The notes under the pieces were generated by a model that searched no databases, had not been told where the DNA came from, and worked only from the letters and a program-made list of their open reading frames with translations. From an archaeon (GTDB lineage Archaea; B1Sed10-29; JAJRYS01), in the NCBI GenBank assembly GCA_024275665.1, contig JAJRYS010000016.1:3050-67049 (forward strand): DNA of 64,000 bases. Reading direction: 5' to 3'. A program made the position numbers and the translations under genes. How positions within the stretch are numbered: the stretch's first letter is position 1; each line of letters opens with the position of its first letter. This document shows positions 23,751 through 43,918 of the stretch, one piece after another.

Positions 23751-24243
23751 GAAAATAGCAGAAGCAGCATTGTTCATGTCGCCAGAGCCTCTTACTGTTA
23801 ATGAAATAGTGAAAGTGACAGGAGTTGAGTCTGTACCAGTTGCTTTAAAATTAATAGAAGATTTAGTGAAAGAGTTCAACTCTAGAGATTCTGCTCTTGA
23901 AATAGTAAATGATAACGGGAAATATTTGATGAGAGTCAAGTAAGAGTACTTGAAGCACGTGTCGCACTTAGCAGTTTCCCCTGAATTCTCAAAAGCAGTA
24001 CTAAGAACGCTTGGATTGATTGCTTTGAAACAGCCGGTAAAGCAGTCAATAATAGTAAGCATAGTAGGCAACAAGGCATATGATTACGTGAACGAGCTTG
24101 TTTCAAAAGGATTTATCAAAGCGAAAAAACAGGGCAACACCAAGATATTAATGACCACTCCTAAGTTTGAGTCTTACTTCGGGAAGAAAACAAACGAGAT
24201 AAAGAAAATGAGCAAAGCTTCTTACCAAAGTACTTTACTTTGA
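23731..24243 (+). pseudogene. scpB: Segregation and condensation protein B (ScpB) interrupted by an in-frame TAA at 23941-23943
   Basis: Two same-frame ORFs (70 aa and 97 aa) correspond to ScpB winged-helix 1 (AEAALFMSPEPLTVNEI) and winged-helix 2 (LSPEFSKAVLRTLGLIALKQPVKQS...KILMTTPKF). Confidence 0.55.
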
Positions 24244-25425
24244 GTTATAATATTCTGTGATTACTTCTAACACGTCTTTGAAGCTAACCACTCCATTGGA
24301 AAGCATTTCTTCTAGAATGTTTTGTTTTTTCTTAATCTCCTTGTTAATGTCAGCCCTGCTCTTGCCGCATAGTTTTGCAAGTTCTTCAATCTTGCCGCTT
24401 GGGATGTTCGTGCTTTCCACTTTGTCAGTCTTGGCATTGTAAACAAACAACTCGCTGAAAGAAATACCAATCTCAGAACGTTGCACTTCAACTATTGAAC
24501 TCACTCTTCTTTTCAATCCTTCAGGAGACCTGATTTTTTTGCATACTATTATGAAATCCATTAAGCCAAGCATGTTCTTAGGAACGTTCATAGGAGGATT
24601 AGTCAAACGGGAAATGCACTCAGCAGGAGAATTAGCGTGAAGAGTTCCCATGGCAGAGTGCCCTACGTTCATGGCGTTGAACAAAGTCTCTGCTTCCGGC
24701 CCTCTCACCTCTCCTACTATTAGCCTGTCAGGTCTCATTCTCAAAGCATTAATGAGCAAGTCATTCATAGTAATGGCACGTGTGTTAGCAACAGCGTGCT
24801 TGCTTTCCATCCTCACGACGTTCTTTCTTCCGAAGAAATTCAATTCAAGAGTGTCTTCTATTACTACTATGCGCTCGTCTTTTGGGATGAAAGAAGTAAG
24901 AATGTTCAATAATGTCGTCTTACCAGCTCCTGCTCCTCCAATAACCAGAATGTTGAAAGGATAATTCCTCTCTCCTTCCACTGCTTCCCATAAGAAAGCA
25001 GCAGCCTCTGAAGACAATGTGCTGTTCTGAATGAGACTAACGATTGACAACGGGTTCTGCTTGAACTTCCTAATAGTAATAGTAGGACTGTTAGGAGTAG
25101 CAGGAGGAATAGTAGCGTTCAAACGAGAGCCGTCAGGCAAGCGAGCATCAAGGAAAGGCTTTTCCTCATTAATCACGTCACCTGCTTCCAAGGCAGCGTT
25201 GTTAATCCATTCTATTATCTCTCTTTCACTCATCACAAGGTTAGTTTCGCACATGCCATGCTTAGCATGATAAACAAATACAGGTTCTCCTGCTCTGTTA
25301 ACCATTATTTCTTCAAGCTCAGGGTCTTTCAAAAACTTTTCAATAGAAGGGTTCTTAACCTCATACTTGTAAAACCCTCTCTTCTTAGTAATCGTTGCCA
25401 TGCCTTTCATTACAATCCAATCCAA
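24235..25425 (-). CDS. VirB11/TadA/GspE-family secretion ATPase (type IV pilus or archaellum-type, short form)
   Basis: Walker A VIGGAGAGKTTLLN, Asp-box and His-box of secretion NTPases, about 396 aa. Confidence 0.7.
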   Translation of the reverse strand: MDWIVMKGMATITKKRGFYKYEVKNPSIEKFLKDPELEEIMVNRAGEPVFVYHAKHGMCETNLVMSEREIIEWINNAALEAGDVINEEKPFLDARLPDGSRLNATIPPATPNSPTITIRKFKQNPLSIVSLIQNSTLSSEAAAFLWEAVEGERNYPFNILVIGGAGAGKTTLLNILTSFIPKDERIVVIEDTLELNFFGRKNVVRMESKHAVANTRAITMNDLLINALRMRPDRLIVGEVRGPEAETLFNAMNVGHSAMGTLHANSPAECISRLTNPPMNVPKNMLGLMDFIIVCKKIRSPEGLKRRVSSIVEVQRSEIGISFSELFVYNAKTDKVESTNIPSGKIEELAKLCGKSRADINKEIKKKQNILEEMLSNGVVSFKDVLEVITEYYNSK

Positions 25426-39969: not shown

Positions 39970-40013
39970 TTTAATTATAAAAACAAATGTCTTAGAATAA
40001 TTCCTGATGCTTT

Positions 40014-40754
40014 ATGATAGATTCTCACGCTCACTTGGATGATAAGGCTTTTAACAAAGACCTGGAAGAAGTTGTTAAACGTTGCAAGGAAAGGCTTAAA
40101 GTAGTAATAGACCCTGCTACTAGTCTTGCTGCTAATGAGAAGATAAAAAGCATAAGCGTAAAATACTCTGGTTTTGTGTTCCCTGCTTTTGGATTAGATC
40201 CAATGCATTCTCATGAAGACATTGAAAAAGCGACAGAATTTATTATTGAAAATCAGAAACAATCAATAGCAATAGGAGAAGTAGGTTTGGATTACTATTG
40301 GCTTAAAGAAAAAGAAGAGCAAGCGCAAGTATTCAAGCATTTCATACAACTTGCTAACGAACTTGGAAAACCTCTAATAATCCATGCCAGGAATTCTGAA
40401 GAAGATGTTATAAAAATGCTTGAAAAACACGCAGGAACTACTGTGATAATGCATCACTTTGCAGGATCAGTGGATCAGATGTTCAGATGTGTGGATAATG
40501 GTTTCCTCATATCCCTTGCTACTAACTTGTGTTATGCTAAATCAAAAGATTTAATTAGAAGAACGCCGTTAGAAAACTTGTTAATGGAAACAGACTCCCC
40601 CTATAATCACCCTGAAAGAAAAGGAAGAAACGAGCCTTTGAACGTGTTCAAACTGCTCTCTATCACAGCTAATGAAAGAGAAATAAACAAAAAGGAATTA
40701 GAAGAAGTCGTTGACAAGAACGCGTTTAAAGTGTTTAAGTTTAAGGTGGTATGA
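40014..40754 (+). CDS. tatD: TatD-family metal-dependent hydrolase/DNase
   Basis: IDSHAHLD at the N-terminus, conserved His/Glu/Asp positions of the TatD TIM barrel. Confidence 0.8.
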   Translation: MIDSHAHLDDKAFNKDLEEVVKRCKERLKVVIDPATSLAANEKIKSISVKYSGFVFPAFGLDPMHSHEDIEKATEFIIENQKQSIAIGEVGLDYYWLKEKEEQAQVFKHFIQLANELGKPLIIHARNSEEDVIKMLEKHAGTTVIMHHFAGSVDQMFRCVDNGFLISLATNLCYAKSKDLIRRTPLENLLMETDSPYNHPERKGRNEPLNVFKLLSITANEREINKKELEEVVDKNAFKVFKFKVV

Positions 40755-41213
40755 GTGTTTAGAAGTCTTACTAAGAAAATGCATAAAGAAAAAAGAATAG
40801 CTTTCTTCGCAGACGGTCCTAACATGCTGCGCAAAGAGTATGATTTTGACTTATCCAAAGTCAAAAAGCAATTAGAACAATTTGGTATCATTGCAATTGG
40901 TAAAGTGTTTTTGAACCAGTTCGCCCCTGACAAACTCATAGAAGCAATAGTAAACCAAGGATTCCAACCAGTTATTGTTACTTCTGATGACGTGGATGCT
41001 CCAATGGCAGCAGAAGCAATGGAAGCAGTGTTCAATCCCAACATTGATGTAATAGCATTAATGACTCGTGACGCTGACTTCCAAACAGTTTTAAGCAAGG
41101 CAAAAAAATACGGCAAGCTTACAGTAGTTGTTGGAAGCGAGCCATTCGCCGCTGCTTTGAAAAACACAGCAGACCACATAGTTATGGTTGGGAAGAGAGG
41201 TAGTTCAAAGTGA
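40755..41213 (+). CDS. NYN/LabA-like (DUF88) domain protein
   Basis: IAFFADGPN...VIVTSD...MTRDADF pattern of NYN/PIN-like LabA domains. Confidence 0.55.
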   Translation: MFRSLTKKMHKEKRIAFFADGPNMLRKEYDFDLSKVKKQLEQFGIIAIGKVFLNQFAPDKLIEAIVNQGFQPVIVTSDDVDAPMAAEAMEAVFNPNIDVIALMTRDADFQTVLSKAKKYGKLTVVVGSEPFAAALKNTADHIVMVGKRGSSK

Positions 41214-41815
41214 GAATAGCAGCAGGAACGCCAGTTGAAAGAGGAAGAGAATTAACAGCATTAAATGCTGAAGAATATTTGAAAAAATTAATGAAAGAAT
41301 CGTTCACTGGATACGTGTGCGTAGCTATTAATGACAAACACGGGATGGAAGAAGGAATATTACTATTCAAAGAAGGGAACATAGTAGCGTCTTCGTATGC
41401 TTATTTCGCTTTTGACAAAGAATACAAAGCAGAACAAGCATTAGAGAGGGCTTTGAATGCTTTCAAAGCTGTTTCCGGAATAGTGGACTGTTTTTCTCTC
41501 TCCAACTCACAAGCAGAGCTCGTGCTGACTCTTAATGATGAGTTCGTGTTAAAAGAAGTAGTTACTGCAGAAAATCTTTCAATGCCAGCAGTGTTTTCAG
41601 AAGACTTTGAAAACAAAGAAGCGGAACAAGCAGGGGCAAGCATGTCAAAAGAAGACTTGTTCAAGAAGCTTGGCATAAGTAGAAAGACTGGGGAAAGAAC
41701 AACGAAGAAAACTCTTGTGGAGAAAGCAAAACAAGAGGAGAAGAAAACAGAGGAAGCAAGGCCTGAAATCACGGAAGACAGGCTTGAAAAACTAAGAAAG
41801 TTGTTGAAAAGGTGA
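41210..41815 (+). CDS. DUF4388-like domain protein with a charged C-terminal tail
   Basis: FTGYVCVAI...EGILLFKEGNIVASSY matches the DUF4388 core (TG.L.v...g..g.iyf.dG.iv.A). Confidence 0.4.
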   Translation: MRIAAGTPVERGRELTALNAEEYLKKLMKESFTGYVCVAINDKHGMEEGILLFKEGNIVASSYAYFAFDKEYKAEQALERALNAFKAVSGIVDCFSLSNSQAELVLTLNDEFVLKEVVTAENLSMPAVFSEDFENKEAEQAGASMSKEDLFKKLGISRKTGERTTKKTLVEKAKQEEKKTEEARPEITEDRLEKLRKLLKR

Positions 41816-42261
41816 TGTTAGTGCCTTTTTTCAAAAGGGTTGTTTACAAGATTCTCAACAAGAAAACAGAAGAAGAAAAACTAAGAATGAAGATAAGAAT
41901 ACTGAAAGAATTGTTAGAGGAAATGGAAAAAGAAGAGCCGAAAACAACCCAAGAACATGCTGAGAGAATAGCAGAACAATTTTATGTTGATTCTGTTGTA
42001 GTATCAAAGCACGATGGGAGCGTGGTTATAGGAAGGGAAGAGGCTTTTGAGAAAATGGTAAAAGCGTCTTCTTTGTACGAATACATTAATTCAGAGTTTC
42101 CGGGAACACGAATGCTTTTAATAAAAGACAGGGATAAATACAATATTATTTACGCTGAAAATGACTTGCTTTACTTCTTCAAAACAAGCGGGGAAATATC
42201 ATCCATAGAAGCAAAGAGAATGGCTGAGAGGATAAGAGAAAAAATAAAGGTGGCACCATGA
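41812..42261 (+). CDS. Roadblock/LC7 (MglB-like) domain protein with an N-terminal coiled coil
   Basis: VDSVVVSKHDGSVVIG...MLLIKDRDKYNIIYAENDLLYFFKTSG resembles the Roadblock/LC7 alpha-beta fold signature. Confidence 0.35.
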   Translation: MMLVPFFKRVVYKILNKKTEEEKLRMKIRILKELLEEMEKEEPKTTQEHAERIAEQFYVDSVVVSKHDGSVVIGREEAFEKMVKASSLYEYINSEFPGTRMLLIKDRDKYNIIYAENDLLYFFKTSGEISSIEAKRMAERIREKIKVAP

Positions 42262-43031
42262 CAAAAGCAGTAGCAATAGCAAGTGGAAAAGGAGGAGTAG
42301 GAAAAACAACCATAGTAGCAAACCTGGGGCTTGCAATAGCAAAACTAGGCAAGAAAGTTATAATGGTGGATGCTGACCTTGACATGGCTAATCTTGAACT
42401 AGTGCTTGGAATGGAAGGAAGGCCAATAACCCTGCAAGATGTTTTGAAGGGAGAAGCAGGAATAAATGACGCAATTTATGAAGTAAGTGAGAATGCTTTC
42501 TTCATACCAGCAGGAATTTCTCCTTCAAAATTCAGGAGAGTTGACCCTGAAAAATTCGCTGACATTATAAAAACGCTTGAAGGAATGGCAGACTTTGTAT
42601 TATTAGATTGTCCTGCTGGCATTGGTAAGGATACTATTGCTTGTTTTTCAGCATGCAAGGAGACAATATTAGTAATGACCCCTGACCCTTTAAGCATTAC
42701 TGATGCTTATAAGACCAGTATTGCCGCTGCGAAGATGGGAGCAGAGTTAACAGGAATAATACTAAACATGATTAAGAATACTAAAGGAGAATTAAAAGAA
42801 AAAGAGATAACAAGCCTTCTTAATGTTCCAATCCTTGCGAGAATAAATTATAACCCTGCTGTTGCTGAAAGCGTTTTCAAAGGAAAGCCATTGGTTACCC
42901 AGGATTCTTCAAATGACTTCACCGTGGAAGTAATGAAGCTTGCTTCGAAACTAACAGGTGTGCCTTATATACCAGAACAACCTAAAAAGTCATTGTTTTC
43001 AAAGCTTTTTAGTTTTTTGAAAAAGAGGTGA
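42258..43031 (+). CDS. minD: MinD/ParA-family P-loop ATPase
   Basis: Deviant Walker A SGKGGVGKTT, MinD-like switch regions, about 257 aa; translationally coupled to upstream genes (ATGA overlap). Confidence 0.75.
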   Translation: MTKAVAIASGKGGVGKTTIVANLGLAIAKLGKKVIMVDADLDMANLELVLGMEGRPITLQDVLKGEAGINDAIYEVSENAFFIPAGISPSKFRRVDPEKFADIIKTLEGMADFVLLDCPAGIGKDTIACFSACKETILVMTPDPLSITDAYKTSIAAAKMGAELTGIILNMIKNTKGELKEKEITSLLNVPILARINYNPAVAESVFKGKPLVTQDSSNDFTVEVMKLASKLTGVPYIPEQPKKSLFSKLFSFLKKR

Positions 43032-43038
43032 AATAAAA

Positions 43039-43260
43039 GTGGAAATCACAAGACCATTTGACTTGTTGAACAGTGTGATGAACCAACCAGTACTAGTAAG
43101 ACTCAAGGGAAACAAGCAGCTCAGAGGAATACTGAAAGCATTCGACCAGCACATGAACTTAGTGCTTGACGAAGCAGACGAACTGGAAAACGATGAAGTG
43201 AAAACAAAACTAGGCAAGGTCATTGTACGAGGAGACAATATACTATACGTGAGTCCTTGA
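43039..43260 (+). CDS. Sm-like archaeal protein (LSm/SmAP)
   Basis: Sm1/Sm2 motifs (VLVRLKGNKQLRGILKAFDQHMNLVL...VIVRGDNILYV). Confidence 0.8.
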   Translation: MEITRPFDLLNSVMNQPVLVRLKGNKQLRGILKAFDQHMNLVLDEADELENDEVKTKLGKVIVRGDNILYVSP

Positions 43261-43340: not shown

Positions 43341-43918
43341 GTGGCTTTAAGACCAGCGCGAACTGTGAGAAAACCTAAAAGACCATGGACTAGGACTGCA
43401 AGAAGGAAAGTCAAAAAAGCACTCGTGAGAGGAGTTCCTGATACCAGGATAAGAGCTTTTGACATGGGTTTCCTTATCCTGCCAAAGCAGAATTGCAGTT
43501 TGATGTCGTGATGGGAGAGAATGTTCAAATCAGAGACAATGCTCTTGAATCAGCCAGAGTAATGGCTAATAAAATATTTGAAAAGAAAATAACTAAAGAT
43601 TTTTACTTTTTCAAAGTAAGAAAATACCCTCACCAAGTACTAAGAGAACATGCCATCCTGACAGGAGCAGGAGCAGACAGGCTTTCTTCAGGGATGAGGA
43701 AGGCATTCGGAAAGCCTAAAGGAAGAGCAGTGAGGACTAAGAAGGAAGAAGTGCTCATGTCATTATTTACTCTTAAGAAATACGAGCATGCTGCCAAAGA
43801 AGGATTGAAAAGAGCTGTTTTGAAACTCCCGGGCAATGCAAAAGTAAAAATGACAGACCTTACAAAAGAAAAACTTAAGAAAGTAATACCTCCTAAGAAG
43901 AAAAAAGAAAAAAAATAA
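43341..43918 (+). CDS. rpl10e: Ribosomal protein L10e (uL16) with an apparent -1 frameshift at the GGGTTT run near 43466-43471
   Basis: N-terminus VALRPARTVRKPKRPWTR...RAFDMG in frame 0; remainder FPYPAKAELQFDVVMGENVQIRDNALESAR...AGADRLSSGMRKAFGKP in frame +2; one missing base in the G3T3 run restores a continuous L10e. Confidence 0.7.

Follow-up and report, generated by a model that had tools for sequence, protein, structure and literature searches.

A conserved MinD-containing gene array

The locus analysed here (positions 40755-43031 of a 64-kb stretch of archaeal DNA, referred to as the window) encodes a MinD-type ATPase preceded by two small proteins, a gene order which is conserved over two DPANN phyla. 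With moderate confidence we interpret these genes as a lineage-specific positioning system of the ParA/MinD type in Micrarchaeota and Iainarchaeota, whose partner proteins regulate or adapt the membrane ATPase cycle of MinD. The core set would consist of the MinD ATPase, a DUF2226 protein and, in about 60% of the lineages, a dedicated Roadblock-fold protein.

Four plus-strand open reading frames are present at 40755-43031, encoding an NYN-domain protein, the DUF2226 protein, the Roadblock-fold protein and MinD. Neighbouring genes overlap by 4 nt, the shared bases being GTGA, GTGA and ATGA, and the initial annotation of four overlapping, co-directional genes was exact in both coordinates and overlaps. 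The array extends beyond these genes, with a TatD-family metal-dependent nuclease as its first gene (40014-40754, plus strand; PF01026, E=1.7e-64) and the Sm-like archaeal protein LSm downstream of MinD (43039-43260, plus strand; PF01423, E=9e-26), giving six genes with a maximal gap of 7 nt. The stop codon of TatD abuts the start codon of NYN, its last base directly preceding that codon, and LSm starts 7 nt past MinD. A TATA-like AT-rich box (tttaattataaaaac, 39970-39984, plus strand), read from the sequence within a 44-nt divergent intergenic region, is probably the promoter of the six-gene array. The array stands at the head of an exosome/proteasome superoperon, with the classic archaeal arrangement downstream, whose housekeeping genes include eIF5A, LSm, L10e, L15e, RNase P, the proteasome and the exosome. 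The L10e gene has an apparent frameshift at 43466-43472, either an indel of the assembly or a true -1 frameshift. Since 4-nt overlaps are frequent across the window (1263/1266, 9891/9894, 44959/44962, 45435/45438 and 47912/47915 among others), translational coupling is by itself unremarkable. What goes beyond chance at this locus is the kept gene order and not the coupling.

Identity of the encoded proteins

The last of the four genes (42258-43031, plus strand) encodes an archaeal MinD-type ATPase of the ParA/MinD family with 257 aa. It reaches 270.6 bits against TIGR01969 (minD_arch; cutoff 201.75, E=1e-80), in agreement with its earlier assignment as a MinD/ParA ATPase, and also matches the Pfam families ParA, CbiA and AAA_31; the bacterial MinD model TIGR01968 gives 138.3 bits, which is under its cutoff of 212.9. 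The deviant Walker A motif GKGGVGKT with the signature lysine was located at aa 10-17 (42285-42308, plus strand) by a regular expression on the translation; it is conserved, and dimerisation driven by ATP requires such a motif. At the C-terminus the protein carries the amphipathic helix LFSKLFSFLKK (aa 246-256; 42993-43025, plus strand; muH 0.62, H 0.17). An equivalent helix is found in nearly all of 59 MinD orthologues (median best muH 0.66) and is probably a membrane-targeting sequence. The MinD sequence is thus consistent with ATP-dependent dimerisation and membrane binding via this helix. Neither of the two adjoining proteins matched MinC or MinE in Pfam and NCBIfam.

The second gene (41210-41815, plus strand) encodes a protein of 201 aa which belongs to DUF2226 (PF09987, E=5e-12; 46.3 bits, GA 22, spanning aa 1-198). 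It contains the peptide FTGYVCVAI...EGILLFKEGNIVASSY which had previously been quoted for a DUF4388-like protein. As a family assignment DUF4388 did not stand; what persisted is a recurrent similarity below threshold. The window protein scores 13.1 bits against DUF4388 (PF14332; E=0.1, aa 15-92, GA 25). Among 43 DUF2226 relatives, 41 match DUF2226 and 13 match DUF4388 weakly (best E=0.0028), while further relatives reach up to 19.3 bits and the DUF2226 family consensus 21.1 bits against the same GA of 25. These matches are recurrent and collinear within the family, all of them below threshold, and in many members the first ~100 aa can be aligned with the N-terminal portion of the DUF4388/PATAN profile. 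From its N-terminus, the protein comprises a domain with weak PATAN/DUF4388-like similarity (aa ~15-115), a linker, a basic motif that is conserved, and a tail rich in Lys and Glu. Neither REC nor any other domain is fused to it. A search of PDB sequences with the DUF2226 profile returned weak, unrelated matches only (ZinT, E=0.058) and no solved relative. Homology of DUF2226 to the Roadblock family was also considered and rejected (hhalign probability 0.7%).

The basic motif (SKEDLFKKLGIS, aa 146-157; 41645-41680, plus strand) was recognised by alignment conservation. A3 shows no variation at S146, K147, F151, K152, K153, L154 and G155, and over 43 sequences the conservation of K152, G155 and L156 is 90% or higher. 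In Iainarchaeota the motif forms the C-terminus of the protein (..FKKLGLSGLG). A membrane helix at this position was rejected, and FKKLG is read as a linear motif, because as a helix it would have a hydrophobic moment of only 0.14. It presumably resembles the N-terminal ParA-activating peptide of ParB, and it is a candidate MinD-docking peptide.

For the third protein (149 aa; 41812-42261, plus strand), Pfam and NCBIfam gave no match. Its predicted structure shows the alpha-beta-beta-alpha-beta-beta-beta(-alpha) arrangement of the Roadblock/LC7 fold, an assignment made by structure only. It was taken from the second of two AF2 models, since the earlier one (5 sequences) reached a pLDDT of 67. 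According to model and alignment, the Roadblock core runs as alpha(46-56)-beta-beta-alpha(78-95)-beta-beta-beta-alpha(131-145) at 41947-42249 (plus strand), with E133 invariant and G69 conserved to at least 90%. It is preceded by a family-specific extension of two modelled helices (aa 4-14 and 20-38; 41821-41925, plus strand), the first of which is amphipathic and conserved (FKRVVYKILNK, muH 0.74). The Pfam profile Robl_LC7 (PF03259) matches 4 of 56 family members below threshold (best E=0.0043), and the family consensus scores 15.8 bits (GA 23). Hence the Roadblock/LC7 proposal of the initial annotation holds for the fold as modelled and fails at the level of the sequence profile. A profile search of PDB sequences yielded nothing usable, the best match being the unrelated 3due (E=0.003). 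On the basis of the predicted structure we regard the protein as a member of a new family with the Roadblock fold, one not covered by any Pfam model. The family is small, amounting to 53 clusters (50% identity) out of 1.84 billion representatives, and was found solely within the DUF2226-MinD context; four divergent members that were checked separately all lie between DUF2226 and MinD. In other settings the Roadblock fold serves to regulate small GTPases, in organisms ranging from bacteria to humans (Ragulator complex).

Conservation of the gene order

Related loci from Micrarchaeota and Iainarchaeota were collected with the DUF2226 alignment, the closest relatives of the window being labelled Micrarchaeota. 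Downstream genes were counted in 46 non-redundant species-level loci whose downstream flank exceeds 2.5 kb and upstream genes in 58 loci. The order DUF2226-(Roadblock)-MinD-LSm is kept in 45 of the 46 loci at about 30% protein identity, so that the lack of conservation which had been named as an argument against a module was not observed. The genes farther out (TatD, NYN and those past LSm) differ between lineages. Of the four-gene arrangement proposed earlier, the DUF2226-MinD order was retained; NYN turned out to be facultative, LSm is nearly constant, and about 40% of the loci have no Roadblock gene.

Of the 46 loci, 26 (~60%) have the Roadblock gene; it is dispensable or replaced, as the remaining ~40% lack it. 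A Roadblock domain hidden as a fusion in these loci was rejected by protein sizes and gaps (DUF2226 172-204 aa, MinD ~260 aa, gaps of 1-50 nt). All insertions lie between Roadblock and MinD (among them a LAGLIDADG ORF, an ORF of 236 aa and an insert of 1.2 kb), and the array persists around them. In Iainarchaeota the spacer between these two genes is usually 50-160 nt, looser than that between DUF2226 and Roadblock. At one locus (L053) MinD is gone and DUF2226 and Roadblock are still paired.

Co-transcription within a highly expressed housekeeping array would bring these genes together without any direct functional or physical relationship. The genes downstream form the classic exosome/proteasome superoperon, 4-nt overlaps are common in the genome, and the coupling of MinD to LSm, often by -4 nt, equals the tightest pairs in the array. 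From the superoperon position and this frequent coupling, co-expression of unrelated housekeeping genes is conceivable. Nevertheless, DUF2226-(Roadblock)-MinD is kept at low identity while the flanks vary, the Roadblock family was encountered in no other context, and both accessory folds are known NTPase-partner modules (bioRxiv 10.1101/2021.06.11.447907). We therefore judge an association by co-transcription alone to be unlikely.

Neighbouring NTPases and RNA-related genes

A Walker A scan revealed no small GTPase in the module or elsewhere in the 64-kb window, and no GTPase lies within the array at any locus examined, which bears out the earlier view that the module pairs its accessory proteins with a MinD-type ATPase rather than a GTPase. 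Only five real genes in the window carry a Walker A motif: two KaiC-like genes, one T2SSE gene, MinD and one ORF with a helicase-like motif.

Instead of acting on the division site, the three proteins could also be a FleN/FlhG-like regulator that positions or gates the assembly of pili or archaella. The Haloferax proteins MinD2 and MinD4 determine the placement of archaella and chemosensory arrays and not that of the divisome (PMC11588486, PMC13228585), type IV pilus loci of archaea repeatedly contain MinD/FleN ATPases (arCOG00589) and Roadblock proteins (arCOG02603; PMC4858521), and PATAN binds PilB and PilC (bioRxiv 10.1101/2021.06.11.447907). The window itself holds a T2SSE-type ATPase (24235-25425) and the KaiC-like ATPases. 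However, the T2SSE gene is 15 kb away from the module with unrelated genes in between, and no pilus or archaellum gene adjoins the module in about 70 loci examined. This makes such a role appear rather improbable.

The NYN-domain protein (40755-41213, plus strand; 152 aa) is a predicted nuclease of the TIGR00288 family. Its identity as given before was confirmed by PF01936 (75.5 bits against a cutoff of 24.2, E=8e-21) and TIGR00288 (193.9 against 178.45), and its GTG start is backed by the orthologue at locus L001, whose start directly follows the TatD stop. Membership of NYN in a stable module, as originally suggested, was not borne out, as it lies upstream of DUF2226 in 35 of the 58 loci, and TatD lies upstream in just 13. 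We read both as facultative co-transcribed neighbours outside the core. The linkage of LSm, which follows MinD in 45 of the 46 loci and often overlaps it by 4 nt, is tighter than that of NYN or TatD. A module of RNA metabolism, in which DUF2226 and Roadblock act with NYN, TatD and LSm and MinD tethers or positions the RNA-processing machinery at the membrane or is unrelated, would suit the frequent 4-nt overlap of NYN with DUF2226 and the exosome genes that follow the nearly constant LSm, but is very doubtful given that 23 of the 58 loci lack NYN (many of them with a complete DUF2226-Roadblock-MinD-LSm set), that neither accessory protein shows an RNA-binding domain, and that Roadblock-fold proteins partner NTPases in solved structures.

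Comparison with known systems and proposed mechanism

Like the bacterial MinCDE system, the positioning system proposed here combines a MinD with deviant Walker A motif and C-terminal amphipathic helix with two small operon partners. These partners are, however, a DUF2226-domain and a Roadblock-fold protein instead of MinC and MinE, and MinD fits the archaeal and not the bacterial model. Archaea have neither MinC nor MinE, and no archaeal MinD partner controlling the ATPase cycle is established (PMC13228585, PMC11588486). The archaeal MinD paralogues MinD2 and MinD4 of Haloferax volcanii likewise come without MinC or MinE, and MinD2 shares its transcript with a small protein whose function is undefined and which is predicted to contact MinD2 (PMC11588486). 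This protein (HVO_0596) is encoded downstream of MinD2 and showed no phenotype, whereas the partners described here are two in number, encoded upstream and conserved over two phyla.

The PATAN domain is a binding partner of a motor ATPase, and its genes are found next to MglA/MglB (bioRxiv 10.1101/2021.06.11.447907). The MglA/MglB systems of Myxococcus, Thermus and other bacteria, with PATAN nearby, are built on a Ras-like GTPase, in contrast to the SIMIBI-class MinD ATPase of the array. Compared to MglB, the Roadblock protein has 4-11% identity and carries the two-helix N-terminal extension. Dip/Arco, an archaeal divisome-positioning oscillator which is reported in only some DPANN groups, is similar in being a three-gene archaeal system, in which a regulator and an effector accompany an NTPase that binds the membrane by an amphipathic helix (PMC13228585; bioRxiv 10.64898/2026.07.23.738820). 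In the literature we found neither a description of the system proposed here nor any work on DUF2226 or on Roadblock proteins together with MinD or ParA.

In the proposed mechanism the ATP-bound MinD dimer would bind the membrane through its C-terminal amphipathic helix. DUF2226 and Roadblock may form a complex, as the linkage of their genes is the tightest and outlasts the departure of MinD. This complex could dock on MinD via the FKKLG motif and/or the N-terminal helix of the Roadblock protein and, once docked, control ATP hydrolysis, membrane release or the choice of cargo. The two proteins would then take the roles of bacterial MinE and MinC. The division site, the type IV filament machinery and the RNA-processing machinery encoded alongside are candidate cargoes. 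Only tentatively we suggest that the Roadblock-fold and the PATAN-like DUF2226 proteins are the missing archaeal MinD regulators, which stimulate or gate the ATPase and membrane cycle.

Two candidate MinD partners, both retained across two phyla, emerge from this locus, which also places the orphan family DUF2226 in a functional setting and newly defines a Roadblock-fold family. To our knowledge, this NTPase-regulator fold is otherwise known with Ras/Rag/Arf-type GTPases. If the interaction is true, Roadblock-type regulators would be extended to MinD/ParA ATPases, with the first Roadblock fold controlling a SIMIBI-class member of this family. The array would then encode a small system of three proteins that organises the ultra-small DPANN cells spatially, and it could be how DPANN lineages without Dip/Arco position their division or surface structures.

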